A DNA stretch of 31,194 nt from Escherichia phage 503458, in sequence record NC_049341.1, one strand, 5' to 3'. The position numbers were made by a program, and so were the translations under genes. How positions within the stretch are numbered: position 1 is the first letter of the stretch; each line of letters starts with the position of its first letter. Shown piece by piece: positions 885-30,191 of the stretch. The notes beneath the pieces are model-generated. The model saw only the letters and a list, made by a program, of their open reading frames with translations, had not been told where the DNA came from and did not search any database.

Positions 885-1999
885 CTTTCCTCCCTGTGCG
901 GCATGGTGCATGTGCGTGCGGAGGGGTTACTGCTTTTTGTTGTCGCCGTGGCGGGAGAACGGCGCAGGGGTGAGATTACGCGCGTGGTGGGTGATGATTG
1001 TTGCCGAATCATTTAACGGATACAGGGGCTGAAGCTATGAGTGAAACTCGTTTTCATGGTGCCCGTGTTACGGAAAGTACCGACCTGGTAACAGCGATTA
1101 ATGATGTTGATTCCAGTGTTATCGGTACGTGGCAACGGCGGATGATGCGGATGCGGAGCTGTTCCCGCTGAACAAGCCCACACTGCTGACCCGCGTCAAT
1201 GACGTGCTGGAAAATGCGGAACAACGGGGACGCTTTATCGTGCGCTTAAGGCCATCGCAGACAGGTGAGCACAAAGGTGATCGTCGTTCGCGTGGCTGAA
1301 CACAAAAAGAAGACGGAAAAACGCAGGATCAACTGGTTATCGGTGGTTCTGAATCTGACGGCAGCTATACGGGATGTATGCGCTGCTTGTTGCAGAGCAG
1401 GATGAAAGCATCGGATACCGTCCGCGTATTCTGGCCGCGCCGGAGCTGGATACGGAGGCGGTAACAAAATCCCTGTGCGTGATTGCGGGTAAACTGCGCG
1501 CGTTTGTGTATGCCTCATGTCACGGCTGTAACACGATGGCTGAGGCGATTACCTACCGCCAGAAATTCAACGAACGTGAGTGATGCTCTTATGGCCGGAC
1601 TTCATCGCCTACAACCCGAAAAGTGGCAAAAACGAAACGTTCCCCGCGCCTGCCTATGCGTGCGGCCTTCGTGCGTACATTGACCATGAGCAGGGCTGGC
1701 ACAAATCGCTGTCCAACGTTCCGGTTAAAAATGTGCTGGGGATGTCCAGGCATGTGTTCTGGTCGTTGCAGGCCGAAGACAGTGATGCCAACAGCCTCAA
1801 CAACAAAGAAATCACGACCATTATTCGTCGCAACGGGTTCCGCTTCTGGGGCAACCGCACACCGGAAACGAACGCCTACATCTTTGAGGTGTATACCGAA
1901 CCGCACAGGTGCTGGCTGATTCAATTGCGGAAGCGCAGTTTGAAACCATCGACAGTCCACTGACGCCTGCGAACGTGAAAGATGTTATCAGTGCCATCA

Positions 2000-3950
<1,951 letters not shown>

Positions 3951-4170
3951 CCATCAGGGCAAAACTGGATTCACTGGTTACTGCCGGGAAACTGATTGGG
4001 GCGTCGTGCTGGTATGACGTGGTGGATAACGGCACCACGAATTTACGTCAGGGGCGCGTGCGTATTCGCTACAAATATACGCCCGTTCCGCCACTGGAAG
4101 ACATGGAGCTTTACCAGTCGTTTACTGATGAATTCTTTGGTCCCGCATTTGCGGTGCTGGGAGGTGTCTG

Positions 4171-4683
4171 ATGGCTGTACCAAAACATCTTCGCTTTTTT
4201 ACGCTGTTTGTGGATGGTGAAAACGAAGTGGGTAAGGTGACGTCCGTCACTCTGCCTAAGCTGACGCGCAAAACCGACAGCTACCGGGGTGGTGGCATGA
4301 TGGGTGCGGTAAGTATTGATCTCGGTCTGGACGACTCCGCGCTTGATGCGAGCTTTGTCATGGGGGGCGCAGTTCGTGAGCTGTTCCTTAAGTATGGCGG
4401 CACGATTGACGGCACGCTGCTGCGTTTTGCGGGTGAATACTACACCGATGCAGAAAGCGACCTGTATGAAGTCGAAATGCGCGGACGTGTGACGGAAATT
4501 GATATGGGGGAAGCCAAACAGGGCGAAGCCACATCACACACTTACGCCATTAAAAACACCTACTACAAGCTGAGTGTTAACGATCGCCCGTTGTGGGAGA
4601 TTGACCTGCTGAACTTCATTTACCGGAAGGACGGCAAGGACATTGTGCCCGATCGCATCCGTTCCGCGCTTGGGCTTGGCTGA
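4171..4683 (+). CDS. FII: Tail tube protein FII
   Basis: 170-aa ORF directly after FI; P2 FII-like sequence; ATG overlaps FI stop. Confidence 0.85.
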   Translation: MAVPKHLRFFTLFVDGENEVGKVTSVTLPKLTRKTDSYRGGGMMGAVSIDLGLDDSALDASFVMGGAVRELFLKYGGTIDGTLLRFAGEYYTDAESDLYEVEMRGRVTEIDMGEAKQGEATSHTYAIKNTYYKLSVNDRPLWEIDLLNFIYRKDGKDIVPDRIRSALGLG

Positions 4684-4738
4684 TAAGTAATATGCTGGCG
4701 GCGCAGTGCGTCGCCTCTGACTGAAAAGGAGACAACAG

Positions 4739-5113
4739 ATGAAAGACATCGATACTGAAACCCGGAATAACACCGTGGCGGATAATGTGACGGCAGTTGA
4801 GGATATGGCTGTCGAACGTGGCGTAAAACTGACCCGACCAATTGAGCGTGGTGGCGAAAAAATCACGTATGTGGAGATCACCGGGGCTATTGAGCAGGCT
4901 GGATCCCTGCGTGGTCTGTCGCTGTCTGATGTGCTGAATCTGAAAGCGGATACCATGTTCACGCTGTTGCCTCGCGTGACCTCGCCACGACTGGATGAAG
5001 TGATGATTAAAAAAATGTCGTCACGCGATTTTATTCAGTTGTGCGCTGTGGCTGTAAATTTTATGAGCGAGCCAGACTCTGGCGCGAAGAGCGTGCAGGA
5101 GACGGCAGCGTAA
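4739..5113 (+). CDS. E: Tail assembly chaperone gpE (zero-frame product)
   Basis: 124-aa ORF between tube and tape-measure genes, the conserved position of gpE. Confidence 0.75.
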   Translation: MKDIDTETRNNTVADNVTAVEDMAVERGVKLTRPIERGGEKITYVEITGAIEQAGSLRGLSLSDVLNLKADTMFTLLPRVTSPRLDEVMIKKMSSRDFIQLCAVAVNFMSEPDSGAKSVQETAA

Positions 5114-5277
5114 TCACCCTGGTGTGCTTTGAGCACATCGAAGATCTGGTGGCGGATATTGCCGCCATTTTTAACTGGTCGCCCGCCGAAATCTTCATGA
5201 TGACGCCCGGCGAAGTGGTTAGCTGGCGTGAGCGGGCGGCACTTCGTAGCGGGAATGCAGACAATGAAGACTCTTGA
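4739..5277 (+). CDS. gpE+E' fusion predicted by -1 programmed frameshift near the A7 run at 5009-5015
   Basis: The -1 frame has a stop at 5008-5010 and is then open from 5011 to 5277, overlapping the 3' part of E and ending inside the T start; C-terminal …FNWSPAEIFMMTPGEVVSWRERAALRSG resembles E' regions from memory. Confidence 0.55.
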
Positions 5278-8071
5278 TATCCGGGTCGCTTTCAGCGCCG
5301 TTGACAGGCTGACCCGGCCTGCCGAAAACGCCCGCCGCCTGATGGGGCAGTTTGGTGACTCCATCCAGCGAACGCAGGGGGCGATCAAAAATCTCGAGCG
5401 TCAGGCGCGATCATTTGAGCGCGCCCGTGACGCTGTCAGTAAAGCGGATGCGGGCATCGTGAAAGCACGACGCCAGCTTAACGCCCTTAATCAGTTACAA
5501 CGCACGGGTACAGTGCTCAGCGAAAAACAACAAAAGCTGATGCAGCAGTTAAGCACCCGGCTTGAACGCCTGAATGAATCGCGCACACGGGAAATTCAGA
5601 AAATGCGGGAGCTTGGCGGAGAGCTGAAACGCCACGGCATTTCCCTGACAGGCAGCGATAACACCATCCAGCAGGCCATCAGACGCACCGAACAGTACAA
5701 CAACCAGCTTGAACGCGAACGGCAGGCGCTTGCGCGTGTAACACGGGCGCGTGAGCGGTATTCGCGCGCGCAGGAAACAGCGGGAAAACTGAAAACAGGT
5801 GGTGCGCTGGCAATTGGTGCGGCAGCGGCGGGCGGCTATGCTGCCGGGCGTTTTTTGCAGCCTGCGATCGGGTTCGGCAAAGAGATGTCCCGCGTTCAGG
5901 CACTGACGCGAATCGACCAGAACAGCCCGCAGTTTAAGGCGCTGCGTGAGCAGGCGTTAAAACTTGGCTCTGAAACGCAGTTCACCGCAGGCGATGCCGC
6001 CAGTGGACAGGCATTTCTTGCAATGGCTGGCTTTACACCACAGGCCATTCAGGCTGCGCTCCCTGGCGTACTGAGCATGGCAACGGCTGGCGGTATGGAC
6101 CTCGGTGAGACGGCGGATATTGGCTCAAATATTCTGACGCAGTTCGGTCTTTCTGCTGACCAGATGGACCGGGTCGGCGACACACTCACCGCAGCGTTTA
6201 CCCGTACCAACACTGACCTTCGCGCACTGGGTGAAACCATGAAATATGCAGGTCCGGTGGCGGGTAAGCTGGGAATATCGCTGGAGCAGGCCGCAGCGAT
6301 GGCGGGCGTGCTGGCGAATATGGGTATCAGGGGGAGTGATGCTGGTACGGCAATGCGTGCCAGCCTGGCTCGTCTGGCATCACCGCCAAAGGCGGCAGCA
6401 GAGGCGCTGAAAGAGCTTGGCGTGTCTGTCTCGGATGCCGGGGGCAAAATGCGCCCGATGGAGGATGTGCTGGCTGACCTTTATAAAGCTACCCGCAAAT
6501 ACGGGGAAGTTGACCGGGTATCGTTCTTTAAGGACATTGCCGGAGAAGAGGCTTTCACATCATTTATGGCCCTCGTTGATGCGGCAGGTGACGGCTCCTT
6601 ACCCAAACTGAGAAAAGAACTTGAAGGCGCGCGCGGTGAGGCTGAACGCACGGCAAAGGTTATGGCCAACAACCTTGACGGCGATCTGAAATCACTCAGC
6701 AGTGCATGGGAAGGGTTGCGCATCCGCATTGCAGATCTGATTGACGGTCCGCTGCGTTCTGTCACGCAGTGGCTCACGCGTGTGGTATCAAAGGTGACGG
6801 CGCTGGCGCAGGCCCATCCCGCACTGACGCGCCAGCTACTGATTGCAGGCGGTGCACTGCTGGCAATGACTGCAACGGTTGGCTCGTTGTCGCTGGCTAT
6901 TGGTGTGCTTGCTGGCCCGCTGGCAAAACTGCGTCTTGGTTTTTCCCTCCTGACCGGATCAATGAATGCTGTCAGGGGTCTGCCAGCACTATGGGGAATG
7001 GTGACGGGTTCCGTTTCTTTACTGGGAGGCGCTATCGGGGCGTTGTTCAGTCCGGTTGGTCTTATCGTGGCTGCGCTTGCCGGAGCTGCCGTTCTTATCT
7101 GGAAATACTGGGATCCCATCAGGGCATTTTTTGCCGGGGTGTTCAGCGGGATTATGGAAAGGCTGACCCCGTTGCGCGAAACCTTTGAACGGTTTGGTCC
7201 TGTTTTTGACGCAATCGGGAGTGGGATCAGCCAGGTGTTTAACTGGTTTAAATCGCTGCTGTCACCGATGGAGTCCAGCAAGGAAACTCTGGATAAATGT
7301 ACCAGTGCTGGCGAGATATTCGGTAACGTTCTTGGCGGTGCGTTACAACTTGTTCTGACACCTGCAAAAATGTTGCTGGATACGCTGGCGTGGATACTTG
7401 AAAAGCTTGGTGTGCTTCCGGATGAAGCGGAAAGGGCGCGCAAGAAAATCGAAGACGCACAGCGTGCGGCCATTCTTCAGGACAAGGTTGCCTTGCTTCA
7501 GGGGGACCTGGCGAAAATCAATCCGCCGAAGCCTGTGGAAAATGGCAATGGCACCGGAGGTGATAACCCCAAAGACAATAAACCGCTCACAGACAGCAAT
7601 ACCGGTACGCTGCGCAGACTCAGCAAAATTGCTGATAACACAGGTAAGCTGGTTGAGGAGACGAAAAAACGCATTGGCCCCGGCGATATTGTCTTTAAAA
7701 ACCTGCCCCGAGCACTTGCTGTTCGTGGGGAGTGGCAGGAGCGGAAGATTGCGCAGGTCAGTAAGCCTGCCCCCGCAATTAATATCACACCCGTGGTCCC
7801 GGCTCCGCTGCCTCCGGCGCTGGTCCCTGTTGTTGCGGCCAGCTCCCGCCCGGTGGCGGAGGCTATACGATCTCCAGTGGTATCAGTTCCTGTAACTTCC
7901 CGTAACCGGGAGCCTGTTGCCTCCGGATTTGGTGGTGAAATTCATGTTCATCTGCATAACGTTGTTACGCAGAATCCCCGCGAACTGGCGAAACTGGTCG
8001 GTGAAATGGTCAGGGCAGAAATGGAACGGCGCGCCCGTGCCGGGCGTGGCAGTTTTTACGATAAAGATTGA
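5255..8071 (+). CDS. T: Tail tape measure protein gpT (~940 aa); start could be 5228, 5255 or 5264
   Basis: Single 947-aa ORF; coiled-coil N-terminus, hydrophobic Gly/Ala-rich central region, position after E/E'. Confidence 0.9.
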   Translation: MQTMKTLDIRVAFSAVDRLTRPAENARRLMGQFGDSIQRTQGAIKNLERQARSFERARDAVSKADAGIVKARRQLNALNQLQRTGTVLSEKQQKLMQQLSTRLERLNESRTREIQKMRELGGELKRHGISLTGSDNTIQQAIRRTEQYNNQLERERQALARVTRARERYSRAQETAGKLKTGGALAIGAAAAGGYAAGRFLQPAIGFGKEMSRVQALTRIDQNSPQFKALREQALKLGSETQFTAGDAASGQAFLAMAGFTPQAIQAALPGVLSMATAGGMDLGETADIGSNILTQFGLSADQMDRVGDTLTAAFTRTNTDLRALGETMKYAGPVAGKLGISLEQAAAMAGVLANMGIRGSDAGTAMRASLARLASPPKAAAEALKELGVSVSDAGGKMRPMEDVLADLYKATRKYGEVDRVSFFKDIAGEEAFTSFMALVDAAGDGSLPKLRKELEGARGEAERTAKVMANNLDGDLKSLSSAWEGLRIRIADLIDGPLRSVTQWLTRVVSKVTALAQAHPALTRQLLIAGGALLAMTATVGSLSLAIGVLAGPLAKLRLGFSLLTGSMNAVRGLPALWGMVTGSVSLLGGAIGALFSPVGLIVAALAGAAVLIWKYWDPIRAFFAGVFSGIMERLTPLRETFERFGPVFDAIGSGISQVFNWFKSLLSPMESSKETLDKCTSAGEIFGNVLGGALQLVLTPAKMLLDTLAWILEKLGVLPDEAERARKKIEDAQRAAILQDKVALLQGDLAKINPPKPVENGNGTGGDNPKDNKPLTDSNTGTLRRLSKIADNTGKLVEETKKRIGPGDIVFKNLPRALAVRGEWQERKIAQVSKPAPAINITPVVPAPLPPALVPVVAASSRPVAEAIRSPVVSVPVTSRNREPVASGFGGEIHVHLHNVVTQNPRELAKLVGEMVRAEMERRARAGRGSFYDKD

Positions 8072-8077
8072 GGAGTC

Positions 8078-8572
8078 ATGGCCATGATGATGATCTACGG
8101 CATGTTTGTTTTTGAGCTGCGCACGCTGCCGCATCAGCAGTTACAGCAAAACAAAAGCTGGCGGCATGTGAAAAATGAACGCGTTAACCGTTCAGCAAGC
8201 TGGCAGTATATCGGTGCAGGTGATGATCGCATCGTTCTTTCTGGTGTGCTTTATCCTGAAATTACAGGTGGCGAAGTGTCGCTGTCGCTGCTGACCACGC
8301 AGGCGTATACAGGACGACCCTGGCCTTTGATTGATGGCGTCGGGCAGATTTACGGCATGTATGTCCTGACTGAAACGAATACGACCCGCTCCGAGTTTGA
8401 TCGCTACGGTAAGGCGAAAAAGATAGAATTTTCACTGACTCTTGAACGCTGTGATGAGGATTTGCGGGAGCGCCTGCAATCCTCATCGTTCAGTGATATG
8501 CTGTCCGGCTTCAAAGATAAGGTGACATCATCTCTTAACAGCGCGGCCAGTTCAGTTAAAGGGCTGTTCTGA
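8078..8572 (+). CDS. U: Tail protein gpU
   Basis: 164-aa ORF MAMMMIYGMFVFELRTLPHQQ…SWRH… resembling P2 gpU; RBS GAGGAG upstream. Confidence 0.85.
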   Translation: MAMMMIYGMFVFELRTLPHQQLQQNKSWRHVKNERVNRSASWQYIGAGDDRIVLSGVLYPEITGGEVSLSLLTTQAYTGRPWPLIDGVGQIYGMYVLTETNTTRSEFDRYGKAKKIEFSLTLERCDEDLRERLQSSSFSDMLSGFKDKVTSSLNSAASSVKGLF

Positions 8573-8581
8573 TTTAACACA

Positions 8582-8611
8582 AAAACCGCTAATGGTCAGA
8601 TTAGCGGTTTT
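8582..8611. terminator. Hairpin terminator between convergent U and invertase genes
   Basis: AAAACCGCTAAT-GGTCAG-ATTAGCGGTTTT perfect 12-bp stem followed by T-rich tract; overlaps the invertase stop codon. Confidence 0.6.
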
Positions 8612-9200
8612 CATTTTCCTGAGTCTGCCCGGTTGTTTCTTCAGTCTGTATATCGCCTACAGGGTGATAACGATAAATCGTCGATGTGCCAATGCCGTAA
8701 ATTATTGCCAGTTGTTTTCTGTCGTGCCCGTTTTTGATTAGCCTTGCTATTTGCTCATGCTGTTCTTTTGTCAGCTTCGGTCGACGTCCGCCTGTGCGCC
8801 CCCTTGCGCGCGCTGCCGCCAGCCCGGCCAGTGTACGTTCAACAATTAATTCACGTTCCATTTCAGCCAGGGCACCCATCACGTGGAAGAAAAAACGCCC
8901 CATTGGAGAAGATGTGTCTATGCTGTCGGTCAGACTGCGAAAATTAATCCCTAGCTCCCGTAGTTCCCCGACAAGAGAAATCAGATGTTTCATGCTTCGC
9001 CCGAGGCGATCCAGTTTCCAGACAACCAGCGTGTCACCTTTTTGAAGGCGCTTTAAAGCGCGTTTTAATCCCGGTCGGTCTGTCTTTGTCCCGCTTAATT
9101 TATCTTCAAATATTTGTTCACATCCTGCACAAACAAGAGCGTTTCGTTGCAGGTCTGTATTCTGGTCATTTGTTGATACCCTTACATAGCCAATCAGCAC
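8601..9200 (-). CDS. Serine DNA invertase, Gin/Cin/Pin/Hin family (probable GTG start at 9200; track ORF extends to 9218)
   Basis: (M)LIGYVRVSTNDQNTDLQRNAL…VVWKLDRLGRSMKHLISLVGELRE…C-terminal HTH; very similar to Mu Gin from memory; GGGAGA RBS before GTG. Confidence 0.9.
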   Translation of the reverse strand: MLIGYVRVSTNDQNTDLQRNALVCAGCEQIFEDKLSGTKTDRPGLKRALKRLQKGDTLVVWKLDRLGRSMKHLISLVGELRELGINFRSLTDSIDTSSPMGRFFFHVMGALAEMERELIVERTLAGLAAARARGRTGGRRPKLTKEQHEQIARLIKNGHDRKQLAIIYGIGTSTIYRYHPVGDIQTEETTGQTQENENR

Positions 9201-9254
9201 ACTGAATCTCCCGTCCAAAAGCGCAAATCATGCCATGCAGGCCAGAAACGGCCA

Positions 9255-9280
9255 TTATTTAAAACCTCGGTTTGCAGGAA
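9255..9280. other. gix-like crossover site 1 (left boundary of invertible segment)
   Basis: TTATTTAAAACC-TC-GGTTTGCAGGAA, 12-2-12 architecture resembling gix/hix/cix sites. Confidence 0.8.
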
Positions 9281-10177
9281 ACGGTAAACAGGGCCAGGAA
9301 CGCGGTGCAAAAGAATGGTGATACCTTGTCCGGTGGGCTTACTTTTGAAAACGACTCAATCCTTGCCTGGATTCGAAATACTGACTGGGCAAAGATTGGA
9401 TTTAAAAATGATGCCGACAGCGATACTGATTCATATATGTGGTTTGAAACAGGTGACAACGGCAATGAATATTTCAAATGGAGAAGTCGCCAGAGCACCA
9501 CAACAAAAGACCTGATGAATCTTAAATGGGATGCTCTGTATGTTCTTGTTAAAGCCCTTTTCAGCAGTGAAGTAAAAATATCTACAGTCAATGCACTGAG
9601 GATATTTAATTCATCTTTTGGGGCTATTTTTCGCCGTTCTGAAGAAAACCTGTATATCATTCCTACACGAGAAAATGAGGGTGAAAATGGAGATATTGGG
9701 CCATTAAGGCCATTCGGCATCAACTTAAGAACAGGAATTGTGTTTGTTGGTAATGGTGCCAGGATTGATGGCGGGCTGGCACTTGGCACGAATAACGCGT
9801 TGGGTGGGAACTCTATTGTTCTTGGTGATAACGACACCGGATTTAAACAAAATGGCGATGGTAATCTGGATGTTTATGCTAATAACGTCCATGTTATGCG
9901 CTTTGTTTCCGGAAGCATTCAAAGTAATAAGACTATAAATATTACGGGGCGTGTTAATCCCTCGGATTACGGTAACTTTGATTCCCGCTATGTGAGAGAT
10001 ATCAGACTTGGCACACGTGTTGTCCAGACCATGCAGAAAGGGGTGATGTATGAGAAAGTAGGGCACGTAATTACCAGGCTTGGTATTGTCGGTGAAGTCG
10101 ATGGTGATGACCCCGCAGTATTCAGGCCAATACAAAAATACATCAATGGCACATGGTATAACGTCGCACAGGTGTAA
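9269..10177 (+). CDS. Alternative tail-fibre C-terminal variable segment (Sv'-like), promoterless in this orientation
   Basis: Open frame starts at the gix core; inversion would fuse it in frame to the H constant region (…VIEYLG-LQETVNRARNAV…); C-terminus …INGTWYNVAQV parallels H C-terminus …INGTWYNAGSI. Confidence 0.75.
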   Translation, partial: GLQETVNRARNAVQKNGDTLSGGLTFENDSILAWIRNTDWAKIGFKNDADSDTDSYMWFETGDNGNEYFKWRSRQSTTTKDLMNLKWDALYVLVKALFSSEVKISTVNALRIFNSSFGAIFRRSEENLYIIPTRENEGENGDIGPLRPFGINLRTGIVFVGNGARIDGGLALGTNNALGGNSIVLGDNDTGFKQNGDGNLDVYANNVHVMRFVSGSIQSNKTINITGRVNPSDYGNFDSRYVRDIRLGTRVVQTMQKGVMYEKVGHVITRLGIVGEVDGDDPAVFRPIQKYINGTWYNVAQV

Positions 10178-10180
10178 TTT

Positions 10181-10708
10181 ATGCAGCATTTAAAAAATAT
10201 TACTGCGGGTAATCCAAAAACTGTTGCCCAATATCAACTGACAAAAAATTTTGATGTTATCTGGTTATATACAGAAGACGGTAAAAACTGGTATGAGGAA
10301 GTAAATAGCTTTCAGGAAGACACCATAAAGATTGTTTACGACGAAAATAATATTATTGTTGCCATAACCAAAGATGCCTCAACGCTTAATCCCGAAGGCT
10401 TTAGTGTCGTTGAGATTCCAGATATAACAGTCAATCGTCGTGCCGATGATTCAGGGAAGTGGATGTTTAAGGACGGAACTGTGGTTAAGCGGATTTATAC
10501 AGCAGACGAACAGCAACAACAGGCCGAATCACAAAAGGCCGCATTGCTTTCCGAAGCTGAATCAGTCATCCAGCCACTGGAACGCGCTGCCAGGCTGAAT
10601 ATGGCAACAGACGAGGAGCGCACACGACTGGAGTCATGGGAACGCTACAGTGTTCTGGTCAGCCGTGTGGATACGGCAAATCCTGAATGGCCACAAAAGC
10701 CTGAATAA
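10181..10708 (+). CDS. Tail fibre assembly chaperone (Tfa), alternative copy
   Basis: 175 aa, [14 protein letters not shown]… N-terminus and …[20 protein letters not shown]-terminus typical of Tfa proteins; paralogous to 10737-11270. Confidence 0.85.
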
Positions 10709-10713
10709 AAATT

Positions 10714-10733
10714 AAGGCCCGCTATCGGGCCTT
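10714..10733. terminator. Hairpin between the two convergent tfa genes
   Basis: AAGGCCCG-CTAT-CGGGCCTT. Confidence 0.5.
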
Positions 10734-10736
10734 GTC

Positions 10737-11270
10737 TCATTCAGGTTGTTCGGGAAACGTTACTGGCAGGCTGGAAGTGTCTGTAGATTCGACTTTCTGC
10801 GCAAAGAGTATCCACTCTGTTAATTTTTGTTTACTCTCGTCGGAAATGATGCCCAGCCGTAGCTGTGAGTCCCATAACTGGGTTTTATCCCTGACAAGTT
10901 GCAACAGGCTTTGCTTTTCATTCTCTGCCTGCTGCCTCTGCTCTTCCCCGGTATAAGTTCGCTTTATCACTACGCCATCTTTGAACATCCATTTACCCGA
11001 AATATCAGCCCGGCGATTTGCTGTAATATCAGGTAATTCAACGACGCTTGCGCCTTCCGGATTAATTGCTGAAACATCCTTTTCAATACAAATAATAACG
11101 CCGTTATGGTCATAGACCATTTTCAAAGTGTCTGGCTGGAAATTCTTTTGTTCCTCATACCAGTTTTTTCCATCATCTGAATAAAGCCATTTGATGTTAA
11201 ATTGCTTTGTTAGCTGGTATTGCTCTTTTGTTTTAGGGTTGCCAGTAGTAATGTTTTTTAAGTGCATCAT
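10737..11270 (-). CDS. Tail fibre assembly chaperone (Tfa/gpG-like), currently expressed copy
   Basis: 177 aa, MMHLKNITTGNPKT…; immediately downstream of H on the same strand. Confidence 0.85.
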   Translation of the reverse strand: MMHLKNITTGNPKTKEQYQLTKQFNIKWLYSDDGKNWYEEQKNFQPDTLKMVYDHNGVIICIEKDVSAINPEGASVVELPDITANRRADISGKWMFKDGVVIKRTYTGEEQRQQAENEKQSLLQLVRDKTQLWDSQLRLGIISDESKQKLTEWILFAQKVESTDTSSLPVTFPEQPE

Positions 11271-11272
11271 CG

Positions 11273-13258
11273 TTAAATACTCCCCGCGTTATACCACGTC
11301 CCATTAATGCAATACTGAATTGGCCTTGCCTGTGTTGTATCAATTAATTCATCACGGTTTCCGTTAACTGAACCCGTAACGACATAACCTGACCTGTCAG
11401 ACCAGCCGGGACCATTCCATGTCTGAACAGATGACAGACCGCCAAGGCGAATACCTGTAATAAACCTTGAGTTACATTCTGCCCGCGTATATGCACCAAC
11501 ATCTCCCGCTGAAGGTTTTCGTGTCGTGGTATAGAAATCTGACCAACCTAATTCAAACCCATAACCATCACGAGCCGACCTGTAGGAAATGCCACCATTT
11601 TTATAATTCACACGGAATTGTACGGCAGGACAGCTACCAGCATTTATATTAAAGTGAAGAATTAATGCAGATGCACCACCAATCAGGGCGTTATATGCAC
11701 CACTATCCCAATTCCATCCAACGGATGTATCACCATTAACAGTATTACCTGTTTGTCGGAGTGCAAATGCATTGACATTTTTGGCACTAATTGAAATATC
11801 GCTAGAACCATCAAAACCAACTCCAGCAATTTTTCGTGCTGTTTTCAGCTTTGTTGCAGTAGCGGCATTGCCGGACAGTTCCCCAGAAAGGCCACCGCTG
11901 AATGTTTGTCGATTGGTCCAGGTATTCGCTGTACTGAGTAACGGTATTTTCTCCCCGCTTGTGCCGAGTTCTCGTAAACCGAGGTATTCGATAACGGCAG
12001 TAACGGTCGCTTTAGCCAGAATATCCCGTCCGACTTTTGTCAGGGTTGCCAGGCTGGCAACATCATTCCCCGTAAAATACGGAAACCTGTCTGCCGCAGT
12101 AGCAAGCCCGGCCAGCGCCGTCAGGGTGGCATCTTTCGGTTGCTTACCCGCAAGCGCGTTAGTCATGGTGGTCGCAAAATTCGGGTCGTTTCCCAGCGCC
12201 GCCGCTAACTCGTTCAGCGTATTCAGTGCGTCAGGTGACGAATCTACAAGGGCGGCAATCGCAGCCATAACGAAAGCCGTGCTTGCGATTTGGGTATTAT
12301 TCGTTCCCTGTCGCGCAGTTGGCGTTGTTGGCGTTCCGGTCAGCGCAGGACTGTTTAAGGGCGCTTTCTTGTTCGTTTCATCCATTACCGCCTTAACCGC
12401 TTTTGATGTCGCGGCCAGTGTTTCAGACGTGCTGTTGGTGGCACTACTGAGCTGGACTATCCCTTTTTGTGCCGTCGTGGCGTCCTGAGCGGTATATTTT
12501 GCGTTAGCAAGGTCATACGCGGCCTTTACTGCTTTCGGCGTTGCAGCCTGCGTTTCAGACGTGCTGTTGGTGGCGCTACTGAGCTGGACAAGGCCTTTTC
12601 GCGTCGTGCTGGCATCCTGCGCAGTATATTTACCGTTAGCAAGATCATACGCGGCCTTTACTGCTTTCGGCGTTGCAGCCTGCGTTTCAGACACGCTGTT
12701 AGTGGCGCTACTGAGTTGAACAAAGCCTTTTGCGGTCAGCGAGGCGTCCGGGTGACGTCGTGACTGTTCATGCTCTTTCAGTTTGTCATCCACGTAATCC
12801 ACTGTGGCCATCACCATGGTGTTATCCACGGTAAGCGCCACGGTGGCAGTGCTGGATACGGTCAGAATGGTGCGAAATGTTTGTGCACGACCGGACCCTT
12901 CGGCAACGGCTGGCTTGTAACTTTCGGCAGTATTTCCCACCGCGATTAAATCGCCGTGCTCATCAAATACACCAATTTCCCGGATCCAGAATCCGCCCGT
13001 TTCAGGAGGAATAACCAGCTCCGCAATAATGCGGTTCTGATGTGTTGCGTCCAGGATGACGCGATTAACAGTATGTCGCCACACCTCATGCACCAGACGG
13101 GTCTGCTTACTGTCTGGTGTGGGCAACGTGCCGCCACCGTCGCCCACGGCCATATGAGTCAGGCGGACAGGCTTACCATCTGGCGCGGCTGCCTGAGCTA
13201 ATTTTTTTGCACCCGTATCGGTGATAACGGTTTTAAATTTTCGTGTTGTGGTACTCAT
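11273..13258 (-). CDS. H: Tail fibre protein gpH (661 aa); constant N-terminal part outside and variable C-terminal part inside the invertible segment
   Basis: Long ORF with conserved N-terminus, three tandem ~44-aa repeats (KGxVQLSSATNSxSETxAAT…KYTAQDA…) and gix site 2 within the coding sequence. Confidence 0.9.
   Translation of the reverse strand: MSTTTRKFKTVITDTGAKKLAQAAAPDGKPVRLTHMAVGDGGGTLPTPDSKQTRLVHEVWRHTVNRVILDATHQNRIIAELVIPPETGGFWIREIGVFDEHGDLIAVGNTAESYKPAVAEGSGRAQTFRTILTVSSTATVALTVDNTMVMATVDYVDDKLKEHEQSRRHPDASLTAKGFVQLSSATNSVSETQAATPKAVKAAYDLANGKYTAQDASTTRKGLVQLSSATNSTSETQAATPKAVKAAYDLANAKYTAQDATTAQKGIVQLSSATNSTSETLAATSKAVKAVMDETNKKAPLNSPALTGTPTTPTARQGTNNTQIASTAFVMAAIAALVDSSPDALNTLNELAAALGNDPNFATTMTNALAGKQPKDATLTALAGLATAADRFPYFTGNDVASLATLTKVGRDILAKATVTAVIEYLGLRELGTSGEKIPLLSTANTWTNRQTFSGGLSGELSGNAATATKLKTARKIAGVGFDGSSDISISAKNVNAFALRQTGNTVNGDTSVGWNWDSGAYNALIGGASALILHFNINAGSCPAVQFRVNYKNGGISYRSARDGYGFELGWSDFYTTTRKPSAGDVGAYTRAECNSRFITGIRLGGLSSVQTWNGPGWSDRSGYVVTGSVNGNRDELIDTTQARPIQYCINGTWYNAGSI
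11969..11994. other. gix-like crossover site 2 (inside H, inverted relative to site 1)
   Basis: TTCTCGTAAACC-GA-GGTATTCGATAA; core GA is the complement of site 1 core TC; encodes …IEYLGLRE… in H. Confidence 0.8.
12420..12775. repeat. Tandem 132-bp repeats (~2.7 copies) within H
   Basis: GTTTCAGAC… unit recurs at 12420, 12552 and 12684. Confidence 0.85.
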
Positions 13259-13260
13259 GC

Positions 13261-13791
13261 TTAATCGCCTGGATAAATGGTAATAACTTCACCGTCATAA
13301 GTTGCCGCCGCTGCGAAAATATCCCCCGGAATTTCCTGAATGATATTCAGCCCTGTCATGTGGCGGCTGACCGGGCGGGCATCGGCAATCAGCCGCTCCA
13401 TTTCCAGATACATTTCCTCCGTCACGCCACTGTCCAGCGTGCCCACTTCAACGGTAAATGTTCCCGGTTCTCCGCCGAACTCCCACCACTCAGACACACG
13501 AATGAGGTATCCCAGCGGCTCAATGGCCCGGCGCAGTGCGCTGATGGTTCCCTTGTGTCGGTGTATCAGCCATGCATCACGAATCGCCTGTCGTTTTGTC
13601 TCTTCCGGCCAGTTGCGATCCCAGCGGTCAACGGAAAATGCCCAGGCGAGATAAGGCAGCAGGTGCACCGGGCAGGTGTCCGGCGACCACAGCGTGTTGA
13701 GGTCTACCGGGATGTCTGTAATGCGCGTTCCGACAACTTCGGCACAACGCATGAAATTGCTGGCTGATGGTGGTAACAGTGAATTACTCAT
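13261..13791 (-). CDS. I: Baseplate protein gpI (probable start MSNSLLPP at 13791; track ORF extends to 13824)
   Basis: P2 gpI-like sequence; overlaps J stop. Confidence 0.8.
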   Translation of the reverse strand: MSNSLLPPSASNFMRCAEVVGTRITDIPVDLNTLWSPDTCPVHLLPYLAWAFSVDRWDRNWPEETKRQAIRDAWLIHRHKGTISALRRAIEPLGYLIRVSEWWEFGGEPGTFTVEVGTLDSGVTEEMYLEMERLIADARPVSRHMTGLNIIQEIPGDIFAAAATYDGEVITIYPGD

Positions 13792-14680
13792 TACGCCCAC
13801 CTTCGCTGATGGTGAATGACTCACAGCGCGCCGCCTGTATGTCGCTGATGGCCATATTCTGTGTGGGTTCGATTATCTCCACGCGTTGCACACCGTGCAC
13901 ATGCAGTGCGGCAGCAATGGCGGACAACGCCAAGTCCTGACCGATAAGCCCCTGTTCAGCCAGCCACTTCCTGAATGACGATTCCGCCGCGGCCAGAATA
14001 GGTTCGGATTCCGGACCGGGGTAAAAGTACAGTTTTGCATTCAGCCGCCATGTCACGATGCTGGCGCTCTGTACGGTCAGGCGGTCGGCCACCGGGCGGG
14101 TATCCTCTGCATTCAGAACGGCGCGAACGGTATTAAGCAACGCCTCCGTTGCCGTGCCGTCGCCTTCAGTGGACAGGATGGAAACCGTCACATTTGCCGG
14201 AGACGGACTGATGGCCCGCGCATCACGCACCAGACCGCTGGCGCTGCGGGCAAAATACTCGTATGCACCTGACGGGCCAGCAACACTCAGGCCGTCGTAC
14301 GCCCGCTGCGCCCGCAGTCTCAGCGAGGTGTCGCTCTCCATCACCGCGTCGGTGGTATCCGTTGCCGGAGTGATAACCAGGCGCTTTGTGTTCATATTGC
14401 CCGCGAGGTTGTCTAGGTTTGTCCCTGAACCGTGGCTTAACATGCAGGCGCGTGCGCCCTCGTTAACCCGCTGGCGTAACAGCATTTCACGAAACGACAT
14501 GGTTTGAGCGATAACGTTCAGGGGTTCTGATTCCAGCTCCAGCGCGGCGGAGACGGCTTCACGCTGTTCGGCAGGATAGGACGCAATCATCATGGCCTTT
14601 GTGTCAGCCAGAATTGCCTCAAAGTCAGGCTCCGCGATGATGGCGGGTTCCGGTAACTGTGAAAGGTCAACGGCGGGCAT
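13784..14680 (-). CDS. J: Baseplate assembly protein gpJ
   Basis: 298 aa, MPAVDLSQLPEP… resembles P2 gpJ along its length. Confidence 0.85.
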   Translation of the reverse strand: MPAVDLSQLPEPAIIAEPDFEAILADTKAMMIASYPAEQREAVSAALELESEPLNVIAQTMSFREMLLRQRVNEGARACMLSHGSGTNLDNLAGNMNTKRLVITPATDTTDAVMESDTSLRLRAQRAYDGLSVAGPSGAYEYFARSASGLVRDARAISPSPANVTVSILSTEGDGTATEALLNTVRAVLNAEDTRPVADRLTVQSASIVTWRLNAKLYFYPGPESEPILAAAESSFRKWLAEQGLIGQDLALSAIAAALHVHGVQRVEIIEPTQNMAISDIQAARCESFTISEGGRNE

Positions 14681-20679: not shown

Positions 20680-21515
20680 TCAGAAGTCAGCCAGCTGGTC
20701 GGAGGCTGCGCCCGTTGCGGTGAACCGGTTCTGCGGATCGCCGTCCTGCGTGCGCAGTTTTTCCTTCAGTGCTGCCAGCTCTGTGGTCAGTGAAGTGATT
20801 TTCTGGCTGTCCTGCTGATGGCGGGTTTCCAGTGCATTAAAACGGTCGATAATGTCGGCCTGTGACGTTGCGACGCCTTCCACCGCTTCCTGAATGCGGG
20901 AGAAACTGGCGTCATCCGCTTTGCGGCCACGGCCAATAATCCCCATTACGCGGTTAAACCACTGGGTGCCTTCTTCCTGGCGTTGTTCTGCCATTTCGAT
21001 GATTTCAGACTCGATGGTTTCGGAGATAAGCGGTGCTTCACCCTGGACACCGTTGAACGTCATCACCGCCTGACGTTGCTGTGCCGTGAATTTCAGGCGC
21101 TCAGTGCCCAGGCTTGCCGGGGTGTCGGTCATCGCCAGCCCGACCAGATAGGCGCGCCCGTTAACGGAGAACTGCGGGTGCAGTTCGATACTGGAATAGA
21201 TTTTCTTGCCGTCCGCGACAAGCTGCTTCATGCGCTCGGTCGGTTCGATTTCTGCATACAGCGCAGTACGTCCGGCCAGCGGGCCTTCCGTAATATCTTC
21301 CGTACTCAGCGCGGTGACATCGCCCATTGCGGAAAATTCGCTTGACGGGCATGGCGAGAGATAGTGCTCAACGTTCACGCGGGCAGCGTAAACATCCGGG
21401 TTGAAGTTCTCGGGGCTTCACGCAGATGTACCGGACTGATTTCGCGGCCATCAACAGTTGATCCGGAGACAGCCACGCGAAACTTTTTGCGGGATGTCTT
21501 TTTTTCATTAGCCAT
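20680..21515 (-). pseudogene. O: Capsid scaffold protein gpO with one single-base frameshift near codon 45 (~21415)
   Basis: N-terminus MANEKKTSRKKFRVAVSGSTVDGREI… in one frame, remainder (…NVEHYLS…AYLVGLAMTDTPASLGTERL…) in another. Confidence 0.75.
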
Positions 21516-21669
21516 AGTTTTTGCCCCTCTGACTGGTTCTTCAGTCATGATGGCAAAGCGTAACAGGCTGATACAAAGGGCTTTTGTTGTAAGAAAACGG
21601 CCAGAACAGGGGGTTAAGGAGAACGGTTTCGCGCGCGGGTAATCTTCCTGTAATTACTCAGGGGGAGCA
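21516..21669. promoter_or_regulatory. Divergent late promoter region between O and P
   Basis: Only intergenic space between divergent capsid and terminase operons; no clean TGT-N12-ACA activator box found. Confidence 0.3.
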
Positions 21670-23417
21670 ATGATTCAGGACGCTTTTGTGCGCCAGCGTG
21701 CGCGGCAACTTTACTGGCAGGGTTATCCGCCCGCAGAAATATCACGTCTGATGGGAATAAACCCGAACACGATTTATGCGTGGAAAAAACGCGACCAGTG
21801 GGATGAAACGCACCCGTGCAGCGTGTCACGCAGTCCATTGATGCGCGCCTCATCCAGCTTACTGAAAAACAGAATAAAACAGGCGGTGACTTTAAGGAAA
21901 TAGACCTGCTGACCCGGCAGCTTAAAAAGCTGCATGATGGCCAGCCGGATGTGATGGCCGCAGGAAAGAAAGGCCGGGCGAAAAAACTCAAAAATCATTT
22001 CACGCCGGAACAGATTGCCGCACTGCGGGAAAAATCATCAGCAGGCTGGAGTGGCATCAGCGGGGCTGGTTTGACTCCCTGACCCTTTGCAGGGAAGCCG
22101 GGATACGTAACAGGATGATCCTGAAATCCCGACAGATTGGGGCGACCTGGTATTTTGCACAGGAAGCACTGCTGATGGCGCTGCGTGACGATGTGGCGCA
22201 ACCTTACCAGCGTAACCAGATTTTTTTGTCTGCGTCGCGTCGTCAGGCGTTCCAGTTTAAAAGCATTATTCAGAAGGCCGCGGCTGAAGTTGATGTGGAG
22301 CTGAAAGGGGGCGATAAAATCATCCTCTCCAACGGCGCAGAGCTGCATTTTCTCGGCACTTCTGCTGCGTCGGCACAGTCCTATACGGGCAATTTTTATT
22401 TTGATGAATTTTTCTGGGTCAGTCGCTTTGCTGAACTGCGCAAGGTGGCTGGCGCTATGGCAACCCTCAGCGGACTGCGGCGCACCTACTTCTCCACGCC
22501 ATCCACCGAAACGCACGAGGCATACGCCTACTGGAACGGCGACCGCTGGAACGAGAAAAAGGCCTCGCATAAACGCCAGCGTTTTTCTGTGGACTGGAAA
22601 ACGCTGCATAACGGGCTTATCTGCCCTGACCGGACGTGGCGGCAAATTGTCACGCTGGAAGATGTGGTTAATCACGGCTGGAAACACACCGATATCGACG
22701 AAATTCGTGATGAAAACACCGAAGACGAGTTCCTCAATCTCTATATGTGTGAGTTTGTCCGCGAAGGGGAATCGGCATTTAACCTGAATATCCTGATTGG
22801 CTGCGGCGTTGACGGATACGACGACTGGAAAGACTGGAAACCTTTTGCTCCCCGCCCGATGGGAATCGTCCGGTATGGATTGGGTATGACGCAAACGGCA
22901 GCAGTGGCAACGGCGACAGCGGCGCTGTGTCCGTGGTGGTTCCTCCGTCTGTTCTGGTGGCCGTTTTCGAACGGTGGAGACGCGACGCGTTCAGGGGCTG
23001 GAGTTTGAAGAACAGGCCAGAGTCATTGAAGAGTTCACGTGTCGCTACAACGTGGAACACATCGGCATTGATGTGACGGGCGGGAACGGGGAGGCTGTTT
23101 ATCAGATAGTGAAACGGTTTTTCCCTGCCGCTATTCCGTACACCTTCACGCTGTCATCAAAACGGTCGCTGGTACTGAAAATGCTGCAAATAATGCGTGC
23201 CGGGCGGTGGGAATACGATCGCGCCGAACGCGAGCTGGTCGCGGCCTTTAACGCCGTGCGTAAGGTGAAAACACCGGGCGGCTTTATCACTTACGAAACG
23301 GACCGTGCGAGGGGGATCAGCCACGGCGACCTTGCGTGGGCAACCATGCTTGCTGTCATTAACGAACCGATTGGCGGCGAAGGAGAAAACGAGCGTTTCA
23401 CGGTTATGGAGTTCTGA
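21670..23417 (+). pseudogene. P: Terminase large (ATPase) subunit gpP, split over at least four frames by single-base indels
   Basis: Successive ORFs 21670-21903, 21816-22082, 22115-23008, 22974-23417 read as one terminase-like protein when frames are joined. Confidence 0.75.
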
Positions 23418-24530
23418 TGAGCAGAAAAAATAAAAAATTGCGCATGAGTTCACGCATTGATCTCGCTGATGCGCTCAGGAAAGAATCGTCGCTCAGTGCA
23501 TTCACATTTGATGGTCCTTACCGCTGACCGGGCATGACCTGCTGGACAATATGTACTGTGCTGATAACGGTCGGTGGTATGAAACCCCGGTGGACTGGTA
23601 CGGTCTGGCAAGAGCTGCCCGGCAAACGTCCTGGCATCAGTCTGCGCTTTACTTTAAGCGCAATGTATTACTCGGTTGCTACATCCCGCACCGCTGCTTT
23701 CCCGGCAGGATTTCTCGGCGCTGGACTGGTTTGTGTTCGGTAACGCATTTCTTGAGCTTCGAAGCAATATGCTCGGCGAACCGCTTAAATTACGGCACGC
23801 CCTGGCGAAATACATGCGACGCGGAAGCGATCTTGAATCATGGTGGTATGTGCAGGATGGCAAGGACGCGTTTCAGTTTCGCCCTGGCAAAGTGTGTCAC
23901 CTGATGAATCCTGACATTAACCAGGAAATCTACGGCATGCCGGAATATCTCGGCGCATTACTCTCGGCCAGCCTGTCTCATTCGGCGGACATGTTCAGAA
24001 AACTGTATTACGACAACGGATCCCACGCCGGGTGCATCATCTACATGGTGCAGCGCAGGTAACCGCGAAAGCATGGACTCCCTGAAAGAAACGCTACAGG
24101 GTGCGCGTGGTGGTGGTGCGTTTAAAAACGTGCTCATTCATGCGCCCAACGGGGGCAAAGAGGGGGTGCAAATTTTGCCGTTCCAGCAGATCACCGCAAA
24201 GGATGAGTTCATGAATGTTAAGGCGGCATCCCGTGATGATGTGCTGGCTGCGCACCGCGTTCCGCGCAACTGATGGGGGCGATGCCGGGTGAAAAAAGTG
24301 CGTTTGGTGATGTGGAGAAGGCCGCGCGGGTTTACGCAATTAACGAGCTGATGCCCGTCATGGAGGCCATGAAGCACATCAATGACTGGCTTGGCGAAGA
24401 GGTGATCCGCTTTAACCCTTACGCACTGTTAGACATCCAGCCACATCCTGACGCGCTTCGCTTGTCTGCTGCTTCGCCGGGGCATAAAAAATTTATGCCC
24501 CGATCTCCAGCTCCTGTATCAGTCAGATAA
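23417..24530 (+). pseudogene. Q: Portal protein gpQ, fragmented by several frameshifts; 3' end uncertain
   Basis: ATGA overlap with P; fragments at 23417, 23551, 23676, 24073 and 24273 lie colinear in different frames. Confidence 0.65.
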
Positions 24531-24893
24531 TTTCACGACGCCTTCCAGTTTATCGCCACCATCGACGGTCAGACTCTTACGCAATCCACCGCGTTGACTG
24601 CATGTTCTCGCCGCCTCAGTGCGATTTTGACGGCCTTACCTTTCACCCCATAAATCAGAATCCTCACGTATTTTTCACGCTCAGCGTGAGAAATACGGCC
24701 ATTCTGTCGTGTCGCTGCGATCGTTAAGGAGCGCTATTTACCCCTGAAACGCGGGCTGTTCCCCGTCACCTGCGCGCAGAAAAACGCGTTTTTTTGTGCA
24801 CGCACGGATCCTTGACGGATCCAGCCGCCATGCGGGCCGGAAGTACAAAAAGTCGTTCAAAAAATTGTGCAAACTTGTGCACTATCGTGCAAA

Positions 24894-24917
24894 CAAAAAA
24901 GCGCCTTATCGGCGCTT
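24894..24917 (-). terminator. Possible rho-independent terminator for leftward transcription
   Basis: On the minus strand GCGCC-GATAA-GGCGC followed by TTTTTTGTTTG. Confidence 0.4.
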
Positions 24918-25213
24918 CAAAAGTATCAATTGTTGCTGTGTATTAATCGCCAACCACGAACATATGCTTCATAGGCATCTCTGTGCTTACAGTTCAGCCT
25001 GGCTAAACGGAATGTTAGCTAAAACTAAATCATTCTGAGCCATAGCGCGTCCTTCAAGCGCATCTTTTATGCCTAGCTCAAAAGCACAGGCAGCGCATTT
25101 GTGCCGACCTTCTTGTCCTTGATATTCAGGGAGAGACAGAATGTTGGGTTATAACGATGAGGGTTCTTGCAAATACCTGTTTTAGCCCGCACTTTATTTA
25201 CCTCATAGGAAAA

Positions 25214-25293
25214 ATATGCGTGCCTTTACAGAGGTGCGTGTAAGCAATAAATATACGACGCACATTTTGAACTACTTCGGAAGGCACGCATAT
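25214..25293. repeat. Perfect 13-bp inverted repeat (ATATGCGTGCCTT / AAGGCACGCATAT) separated by ~54 bp
   Basis: Direct reading of sequence; internal region also partly self-complementary. Confidence 0.7.
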
Positions 25294-25320
25294 CAGGTTA
25301 AGTGAGTCCGACCGAGTTTT

Positions 25321-25354
25321 ACGCCCCAATAGTTGCTGCTATTGGGGCGTTTTG
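25321..25354 (+). terminator. Rho-independent terminator (plus strand)
   Basis: ACGCCCCAATAG-TTGCTG-CTATTGGGGCGT 12-bp perfect stem followed by TTT. Confidence 0.55.
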
Positions 25355-25463
25355 CATGGACAATGCTGCGCAATTATCTTGTCGCTCACAATGCGAACGA
25401 TCTTACAAAAAGGCACATTACTGTCAAGTAATTGATCGTTTTAATCGATAGATAATAGACAAT

Positions 25464-25864
25464 CTATTTGTTTAACAGATCGATTATTGAAGTAAGTGTG
25501 CCAAATGGAATGATACTGTTTCTATAAACGTGAGCATTTTTCGCGCAGATGCTTTTACCAGGAAATAACGCCCGGATATTCCCAGCCATCTGGCTGGTTA
25601 TCTTAGCCACTGGTGCAGACTGTGCTTCAAACTTTTTTGAGCTGATTTGTGTCACAGGTAACATCTCATCATCAGCCATGCGGCCAGTCGGTAAGCCTCT
25701 GCCGGATTCATTTTCAGAAGTGCCAGCCCGGCCAGAAAAGCCACGCGTTGGCCGCTTTTGCGGGCTTCCGGTGTAAGGCTGTCCAGCCAGGCGCATGCTT
25801 CGCTTTCGTTCTTGACGGCCGCAGGCTTCAGATAGAAACTTATCCGCCTGGTTGGTGTCGTCAT
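25464..25864 (-). pseudogene. parR: ParR/StbB-like partition adaptor, one frameshift near 25655
   Basis: MTTPTRRISFYLKP…RVAFLAGLALL… then …NIRALFP… in a second frame, resembling plasmid R1 ParR from memory; AAGGAG RBS. Confidence 0.55.
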
Positions 25865-26815: not shown

Positions 26816-26845
26816 GTCGATTTTCCTTATGTTGATTAATTAACC

Positions 26846-26957
26846 GTTTACGGGATTCTGAAATCCCTCTTTTGCCTGTTTTGTGCGTGCTTCATATCGC
26901 GGCACGTTTTTTGCTCATTTACGGGATTTGTGAGTCCCGTTTCTGTCTGTTTTTTGT
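26846..26957. repeat. Two ~40-bp direct repeats, each containing a 6-bp-arm palindrome, upstream of parM (candidate parC-like centromere/operator)
   Basis: GTTTACGGGATTCTGAAATCCCTCTTTTGCCTGTTTTGTG and CATTTACGGGATTTGTGAGTCCCGTTTCTGTCTGTTTTTTG. Confidence 0.6.
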
Positions 26958-27093
26958 TTCCACTGGTCAGGCTACCCCGCAGCAGGTCTGCTTTGCGGTG
27001 GGCGCGTTCAGTGGTTTCACTGATTCTCTGTGCGTGCTCTGCGTCACGGATGGCGCGCAGCATGTCAGAAAGCACGGTAACGGGGGTTTTCAT
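26848..27093 (-). CDS. Small hypothetical ORF downstream of gpA; 3' half runs through the direct repeats, so true extent is doubtful
   Basis: 81-aa ORF in six-frame track. Confidence 0.3.
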   Translation of the reverse strand: MKTPVTVLSDMLRAIRDAEHAQRISETTERAHRKADLLRGSLTSGNKKQTETGLTNPVNEQKTCRDMKHAQNRQKRDFRIP

Positions 27094-27223
27094 GGTGTTC
27101 TGGTCTTGCTGAAGTGTGGATGCCAGGCGTGCGGCGGCTTCAGGGTCTGATGCCCCCAGCTGTTCCAGATAGCTGGCGACCGGGTTATGGCGGATCTCCG
27201 TGCTGCTTACGCCGTGATACGGC

Positions 27224-30050: not shown

Positions 30051-30191
30051 TGCGGCAATCCTCTTGTTGCAGATGTGCGAAGGCCTCCCGCCGCAAGGTG
30101 CAGGAAAGGCCCGGAACAGGAATTAACGGAGTTTGTTTTGCTGCCGGATGAGCTGCTGAAGCCCGACGTGGTTTCCGGCAGTAGGAGGTGC

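Follow-up and report, generated by a model that had tools for sequence, protein, structure and literature searches.

The tail fibre locus described here is very probably, as read from its sequence, a structurally complete host-range switch of the Gin/Mu G type, carried by a P88-like E. coli prophage (genus Xuanwuvirus, family Peduoviridae). The window, that is the whole stretch of about 31 kb that was analysed, had originally been predicted to hold a switch of the Mu G / P1 C type in a P2-like prophage. Every structural element of such a switch that was tested was found, and the assignment of the prophage held at the family level, with the genus now given as Xuanwuvirus.

Crossover sites and invertible segment

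The whole 31-kb window was searched with a degenerate pattern for Din-family crossover sites, three mismatches at most being allowed. Only two matches were obtained (0.03 expected by chance), and none of 100 shuffled controls yielded two sites. The invertase-proximal, gix-type site lies at 9255-9280 on the plus strand, with its core TC at 9267-9268, and reads TTATTTAAAACC-TC-GGTTTGCAGGAA. The H-proximal site lies at 11969-11994 (plus-strand coordinates, core GA at 11981-11982), within the H reading frame, where it codes for ...IEYLGLRE..., and its minus-strand reading from 11994 to 11969 is TTATCGAATACC-TC-GGTTTACGAGAA. The two 26-bp sites are in inverted orientation, are built of imperfect 12-bp half-sites around the same central dinucleotide (TC/GA), and have 20 of 26 bases in common. 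The H-proximal site showed one mismatch to the Din-family pattern, and the invertase-proximal one showed three to Mu gix. A third gix-like site, which would be the sign of a shufflon as in EPEC or p15B, was not found in the window at three or fewer mismatches. The pair of inverted gix-like sites with TC/GA cores was therefore found just as the original prediction had placed it, and it is unique in the window.

The segment between the sites (9268-11981, core to core) is 2714 bp long and has a low G+C content of 43-45%, versus 55-59% in the flanks. It contains two opposed fibre 3' ends and, for each of them, a chaperone gene; the constant 5' part of the fibre gene and the promoter are located outside. 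In the present orientation the tail fibre gene H (11273-13258, minus strand) is complete, as had been predicted, and encodes 661 aa with Pfam Phage_tail_fib and three Phage_fiber_2 repeats; three 132-bp tandem repeats start at 12390, 12522 and 12654. The protein is composed of a constant part of 426 aa (11982-13258, minus strand) and a variable part, Sv (11273-11980, minus strand), which forms a Mu-S'-like tip of 235 aa. Over its last 165 aa it shares 88.5% identity with Mu S' of G(-). The currently expressed tail-fibre assembly chaperone, of the U' type, follows in the position of P2 gpG (10737-11270, minus strand; Pfam Caudo_TAP, 6.2e-34) and is 94.9% identical to Mu U'.

On the plus strand, the silent alternative fibre 3' end, Sv' (9269-10177), has no start of its own and was recognized by Pfam Gp34_trimer and by its in-frame fusion to H. 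Its first 95 aa are those of Mu S 171-265 save two substitutions, and its tip has diverged. The silent U-type chaperone gene next to it (10181-10708, plus strand; Caudo_TAP, 2.6e-35) encodes a protein that shares 92% identity with Mu U. The two cassettes converge, and the 3' ends of the chaperone genes face a G+C-rich hairpin at 10714-10733, a candidate terminator with AATTTTTATT after the stem on the minus strand. Thus, the two fibre ends and two chaperones predicted within ~2.7 kb were present, but they are arranged tail-to-tail and not head-to-head as had been proposed. None of the five proteins of the locus received an equivalog-level name from NCBIfam.

The DNA invertase and its control region

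As predicted, a gene for a Gin-type invertase (8601-9200, minus strand) was found just outside the invertible segment, 54 bp beyond the invertase-proximal site. Its most likely start is the GTG at 9200, giving a Din-family serine DNA invertase of 199 aa, and not the TTG at 9218 (205-aa ORF), because Mu gin and the public annotation start likewise. The protein matched Pfam Resolvase (PF00239, 3.7e-50) and HTH_7 (PF02796, 8.8e-13), as well as the PDB Gin entries 4m6f/3uj3 at an E value of 3e-99. It was found that 154 of 193 residues (~80%) are identical to Mu Gin, including 117 of the first 119. The protein has the N-terminal resolvase domain, the serine at about position 9-10 and the C-terminal HTH of small serine recombinases of the Din family. 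Ser9, the catalytic residue of Gin (PMC3575834), and the wild-type Met114 are both kept, the latter implying that the enzyme should be Fis-dependent.

The 5' 240 nt of the gene (8961-9200, minus strand) are the counterpart of the stretch of Mu gin with the Fis-dependent enhancer (sis), which Kahmann et al. in 1985 reportedly located within the 5' part of gin. Three of these 240 positions are changed relative to Mu gin, and together with the gix site the stretch shows ~98% DNA identity to Mu gixR and gin. This similarity points to a cis-acting, Fis-dependent enhancer in the same part of the present gene. As in Mu, the invertase promoter and the site at 9255-9280 probably overlap, with the inner half-site probably providing the -35 region. 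Since the inner half-sites of the two sites are not the same (TTCCTGCAAACC vs TTCTCGTAAACC), invertase expression, and hence the switching rate, could, with a low probability, depend on orientation. A hairpin with a 12-bp stem at 8582-8611, between the convergent gpU and invertase genes, is a candidate bidirectional terminator.

By homology to Gin, invertase dimers would bind both 26-bp sites, and the sites would synapse with the Fis-bound enhancer in the 5' part of the invertase gene. The enzyme would then cut both central 2-bp cores, rotate and religate them, flipping the 2714-bp segment.

Flipped state and orientation in related genomes

When the segment was flipped in silico, the H constant part joined the silent segment in frame at 9269, in agreement with the original prediction. 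The resulting fibre of 728 aa consists of the 426-aa constant part and an alternative tip of 302 aa, followed by the U-like chaperone, compared with the present 661-aa fibre followed by the U'-like chaperone. A full-length fibre is accordingly read in frame in both orientations.

Among 5426 complete E. coli genomes, 375 contained the predicted flipped junction on the invertase side, with a best match of 99.8% over 800 nt, and 210 contained the present junction. The counts on the H side (flipped junction contiguous in 355 genomes, present one in 327) were not taken as a sign of flipping, because the flipped junction is also matched, at 97.5%, by classic P2-like prophages that have a fixed H and lack an invertase; the invertase-side test was used in their place. 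The prophage of E. coli M10 was colinear with the flipped model, two long pieces aligning at ~96% identity. It carries the sites TTATTTAAAACC-TC-GGTTTACGAGAA and TTCCTGTAAACC-GA-GGTATTCGATAA; relative to the window, the outer half-sites are unchanged and the inner half-sites are swapped exactly at the 2-bp core. Judging from these genome sequences, sibling prophages occur in both orientations, with the exchange exactly at the predicted core.

P88, a viable phage, has the segment in the flipped state relative to the window. Its fibre has been proven experimentally to set the host range, in a paper in which inversion and invertase go unmentioned (PMC5285337). For P2-like E. coli prophages, experimental proof of flipping was obtained earlier in EPEC by whole-genome sequencing and PCR (PMC4272514).

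The host prophage

The host element is a P88-like Xuanwuvirus of the Peduoviridae. P2-type structural genes (capsid N, gpU, gpI, gpJ, gpW, gpV, sheath, tube, gpD and ogr) were found, the evidence including the annotation of phage 520873, classified in Xuanwuvirus, and of the identical locus in strain 510016; Pfam Phage_P2_GpU and Tail_P2_I were detected. The gene order was not that of P2 (H-G, then FI-FII-E-T-U-D on the same strand), as the FI-U block lies on the strand opposite to H and D. The same is seen in P88 and in the UTI89 prophage, so that the strand-flipped block is a trait of the genus and leaves the family membership intact. Inversion of FI-U by the invertase at a secondary site was also considered, but it was rejected as unsupported speculation since the arrangement is typical of the genus; no inverted repeat was found at the ends of the block. 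The tail sheath gene is interrupted by IS100, which renders the prophage defective. The switch is thus currently unable to alter the host range of any infectious particle, and it is left without a phenotypic read-out.

Alternative explanations

It is also conceivable, with a clearly lower probability, that the architecture is intact but that the segment is locked in the S'-type state, the invertase being inactivated by R83L or unexpressed in a decaying prophage. Residue 83 is Leu in the window and Arg in Gin, P88, UTI89 and M10, and among the 5426 complete E. coli genomes the Leu83 allele was found only in the sibling strain 510016, which makes it private to this lineage. The IS100 insertion indicates that decay has already begun, and the three sibling assemblies (window, 510016 and 520873) share one orientation. 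Nevertheless, gamma-delta resolvase has Gln at position 83, so that the Arg is dispensable for fold and chemistry, and Ser9 and the remaining catalytic domain are unaltered. Arg84 of Hin, the equivalent of Gin Arg83, goes unmentioned in the paper on the Hin-enhancer interface. Din invertases (Gin, Cin, Pin and Hin) are interchangeable, each being able to complement the others in trans; with a second homologous place in the genome of strain 510016, another invertase could still flip the segment. The common orientation of the three siblings is weak evidence against flipping, because consensus assemblies show the majority state only. Four UTI89 assemblies with the Arg83 enzyme are likewise all in one orientation, implying that identical orientation in assemblies says little.

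It is improbable that orientation-dependent invertase expression has produced a biased or self-locking switch and that the invertase of this tail-less prophage mainly acts in trans on other Din-type segments. That there is no programmed switch at all, the arrangement reflecting chance juxtaposition or general homologous recombination at short inverted repeats beside an unrelated recombinase gene, is next to impossible: the repeats are indeed short and imperfect (33 nt at 76%) and tail-fibre genes are known mosaics, but this reading was refuted by the site search, in which the only two sites in 31 kb fitted the Din crossover consensus, and by the exchange in sibling genomes exactly at the 2-bp core of a site whose 26 bp are too few for RecA-dependent recombination, and it is further opposed by the 80% identity of the adjacent gene to Gin and the homology of the whole module to Mu G-gin.

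The points that count against a complete Gin-type switch are the private Leu83, the single orientation in three siblings, the likeness of the sites at only 20 of 26 bases, and IS100.

Meaning of the locus

A structurally complete Gin-type switch remains the preferred reading. The locus is an already known kind of system that is annotated in GenBank, and the mechanism of Din-type fibre switches has been textbook knowledge since the 1980s. The finding therefore contributes little past correct annotation. What public records show beside the invertase as a separate 'tail fiber protein' is no gene of its own but the promoterless alternative 3' end of H. The variation of orientation among near-identical prophages (375 vs 210 genomes) is relevant to host-range prediction for P88-like phages and to the comparison of assemblies.

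Comparison with known systems

The G/gin system of Mu, as well as those of D108 and SfMu, has the same topology: a constant fibre 5' part, gix, Sv-U, the convergent U'-Sv', gix, and an invertase gene pointing outward. Besides the ~98% identity of the gix site and gin 5' DNA, the chaperones are 92-95% and the S' tip 88% identical to those of Mu, and the reading frame of Mu S relative to the site is the same as that of H. In contrast, the constant part in the window is a P2-type H with a tail-collar N-terminus and three fibre repeats, where Mu has Sc. The segment is 2714 bp long versus ~3 kb in Mu, and the two sites differ from each other (20/26 common) whereas those of Mu are identical. The silent tip departs from Mu S after 95 aa, and the DNA-binding domain of the invertase is only ~50% identical to that of Gin and 6 aa longer.

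At the DNA level, Mu G, D108, P1 C and P7 C match parts of the segment with ~90% identity, and these matches cover 38-51% of the 4.8-kb query; for the C segments of P1 and P7, the identity was ~89-90% over 42-44% of the query. P88-like phages have the region 9251-11998 in common with the window as a cassette, and SfMu, too, carries parts of it at ~90% identity. The P1 C/cin, P7, e14 P/pin and EPEC E2348/69 P2-like prophage systems are likewise fibre switches with Din invertases. In EPEC and e14 the core of the sites is TT (AAACCTTGGTTT), unlike the TC of the window, and the enzyme is of the Pin type. The EPEC remnant at 2.98 Mb also differs from the window in that it retains the canonical P2 order: there the invertase gene precedes FI-FII-E-T-U-D on a single strand.

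The baseplate, the constant part of the fibre and tail proteins such as gpU and gpI have homologues in phage P2, which has neither an invertase nor an invertible segment, and the FI-U tail module of the window is inverted compared with the P2 order. Classic P2-like prophages carry a fixed H that resembles the flipped fusion of the window (97.5%). P88 and the other Xuanwuvirus prophages (UTI89, M10 and 520873) belong to the same genus, have the same gene order, and encode an invertase identical save one residue. Phage 520873 (NC_049344) is 99.65% identical to the window, and the annotation of its locus names DNA invertase, tail fiber and chaperone genes. The orientation in P88 and M10 is opposite to that of the window, and the window copy differs by having R83L and by IS100 in the sheath gene.

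Gene layout and crossover sites

The gene layout was obtained from an ORF map and a Pfam scan of the window. A tape-measure gene (5228-8071) and a P2 gpU homologue (8078-8572) on the plus strand are followed by a serine recombinase gene on the minus strand (8601-9200; Resolvase and HTH_7), which, as predicted, lies just outside the invertible segment, next to the site at 9255-9280. The two fibre 3' ends and two chaperone genes expected within this ~2.7-kb segment were found: a fibre-like ORF (9272-10177, plus strand; Gp34_trimer) with a silent Caudo_TAP chaperone gene (10181-10708, plus strand), and the end of the tail fibre gene H with an expressed Caudo_TAP chaperone gene (10737-11270, minus strand). 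H itself is complete on the minus strand (11273-13258, 661 aa), with a tail-collar N-terminus and three fibre repeats, and is flanked by a P2 gpI homologue (13261-13824, minus strand). The original prediction had placed the two cassettes head-to-head, which was wrong; they are convergent, both chaperone 3' ends pointing toward a G+C-rich hairpin between them (10714-10733). The fibre repeats are three tandem 132-bp (44-aa) units in the constant part of H (12390-12785; mutual identity 74-82%), corresponding to Pfam Phage_fiber_2 repeats. The G+C content is 43-45% in the invertible segment (9001-12000) versus 55-59% in the flanking phage genes, which fits a horizontally exchanged cassette.

A repeat finder paired 9248-9280 with 11969-12001 as the two arms of an inverted repeat. 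Read directly, the invertase-side 26-mer (9255-9280, plus strand) is TTATTTAAAACC-TC-GGTTTGCAGGAA, and the H-side 26-mer (11994-11969, minus strand) is TTATCGAATACC-TC-GGTTTACGAGAA; 20 of the 26 bases are alike, and the central TC is common to both. With up to 3 mismatches allowed, a degenerate Din-family crossover pattern matched only these two sites in the whole 31-kb window. Because 0.03 matches were expected by chance and not one of 100 shuffled sequences produced two, the paired inverted gix-like sites with TC/GA cores are real and beyond chance, confirming the earlier observation.

Invertase

The invertase most likely starts at the GTG at 9200, giving 199 aa, in line with Mu gin and the public annotation. 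The protein is identical to Gin at 154 of 193 residues. Only two changes fall within residues 1-119, Lys for Arg at 39 and Leu for Arg at 83. Ser9, which is catalytic in Gin (PMC3575834), is retained, and Met114 is wild-type. The invertase looks like a mosaic of a near-Gin catalytic domain and a DNA-binding domain that shares only about 50% identity with Gin. In the latter (8601-8840) the recognition helix is Hin-like (GIGxSTxYRY) and the C-terminus is 6 aa longer. Identity to Mu gixR and gin is about 98% in the DNA next to the site and in the 5' 240 nt of the gene, a stretch known in Mu gin to hold the Fis-dependent enhancer.

Codon 83 is CTA (8952-8954). Arg occupies this position in Mu Gin, P88, UTI89 and M10, and gamma-delta resolvase has Gln at the equivalent position. 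The invertase gene was found in 620 of 5426 complete E. coli genomes, and Leu83 only in the sibling strain 510016. The position equivalent to 83 goes unmentioned in a study of the Hin-enhancer interface.

Inversion in silico and between genomes

The segment 9268-11981 was inverted in silico, with cuts at the central dinucleotides (9267/9268 and 11981/11982). As had been proposed, this joined the constant part of H (426 aa, ...ATVTAVIEYL) in frame to the plus-strand segment, GLQETVNRARNAVQKNGDTLSGG..., and gave an open 728-aa fibre ending 3 nt ahead of the second chaperone gene. The reading frame across the core (L-G-L) is the same as in Mu S. The TTG 'start' at 9272 is an ORF-calling artefact, the segment being without a start of its own. 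In public records the silent fibre 3' end (9272-10177) is given arbitrary internal starts and listed as a gene in its own right, named 'tail fiber protein' or 'phage tail protein' (25633-26538 in L001 and 20806-21678 in L002, two compared records); such an entry is an artefact of annotating the silent cassette.

Flipping was judged by comparison between genomes. The H-side junction was uninformative; the fixed H of classic P2 prophages matches the flipped fusion. The invertase-side junction is specific, and the recombinant query comprised the invertase, outer half-site, core, inner half-site of the other site and then the variable fibre end (Sv). It was contiguous in 375 of the 5426 complete E. 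coli genomes (best, 99.8% over 800 nt), and the present junction occurred in 210. E. coli M10 was colinear with the flipped model. Its sites, TTATTTAAAACC-TC-GGTTTACGAGAA and TTCCTGTAAACC-GA-GGTATTCGATAA, have exchanged inner and unchanged outer half-sites, as would be predicted for crossover at the 2-bp core, and the exchange is confined to 10 bp around the core. Phage P88 is also in the flipped state. The window, 510016 and phage 520873 have the same orientation and four UTI89 assemblies (Arg83 enzyme) likewise share one, to be read bearing in mind that consensus assemblies give the majority state only. In the related prophage of E. coli FDAARGOS_1299 (L006, 6381-9003) the segment is rearranged, with the 5' part of Sv at both ends and an about 60-nt duplication and frameshift at the H junction, which suggests extra recombination inside the cassette.

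State of the prophage

Consistent with the predicted P2-like prophage, gpU and gpI homologues are present and the window is 99.65% identical to Escherichia phage 520873 (NC_049344; Peduoviridae, Xuanwuvirus), a predicted prophage from an Indian stool isolate. Against E. coli 510016, where the prophage adjoins a tRNA-Leu gene, there were no mismatches; 103 bases are deleted from the window in 66 gaps, all at 656-2219 and 21413-30916, outside the 8601-13258 locus. These gaps, probably errors of long-read assembly, break up ORFs such as those of the sheath N-terminus, istB and the replication genes. The integrated prophage also contains a partition gene and a plasmid segregation gene of the ParM type (about 25583-26858; L002, 37084-38359).

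The tail sheath gene carries an IS100 insertion (2000-3950; terminal inverted repeats 2000-2027 and 3923-3950; istB/istA ORFs 2183-3864), and therefore the prophage is defective, with no contractile tail as it stands. Switching would be without consequence for infection unless this defect were repaired or complemented. Compared with the P2 gene order, the tail module FI-FII-E-T-U (about 1027-8572) is inverted, H, D and ogr being on the other strand. This is a trait of the genus and no local rearrangement, because P88, a viable phage, and the prophage of UTI89 have the same order (H, segment, invertase, inverted U-T-E-FII-FI, D). The ends of the FI-U block showed no inverted repeat.

Comparison with known switches

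Two P2-like prophages of EPEC E2348/69, one of them a head-less remnant, flip in clonal cultures, as found by whole-genome sequencing and PCR (PMC4272514); their sites are of the Pin type with a TT core, whereas the core here is TC. The P88 fibre was shown to set host range (PMC5285337), and tail-fibre inversions have been catalogued systematically (PMC9881135). The stretch 9251-11998, exactly the segment, is a cassette common to P88-like phages, and a near-identical deposited sequence carries the relevant product names (99.65% over the window, 100% over 8500-13300). Parts of the segment are about 90% DNA-identical to Mu, D108, SfMu, P1 and P7, where they are annotated as G or C segment. Mu U' and the expressed chaperone share 94.9% identity, and over its final 165 aa the expressed fibre has 88.5% identity with Mu S'. 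For the silent chaperone, identity to Mu U is 92%; the silent fibre end matches Mu S 171-265 in all but two residues and diverges beyond them (51% overall), so its receptor is not deducible from Mu G(+). The original interpretation as a switch of the Mu G/P1 C type is supported; the locus belongs to this long-known class.
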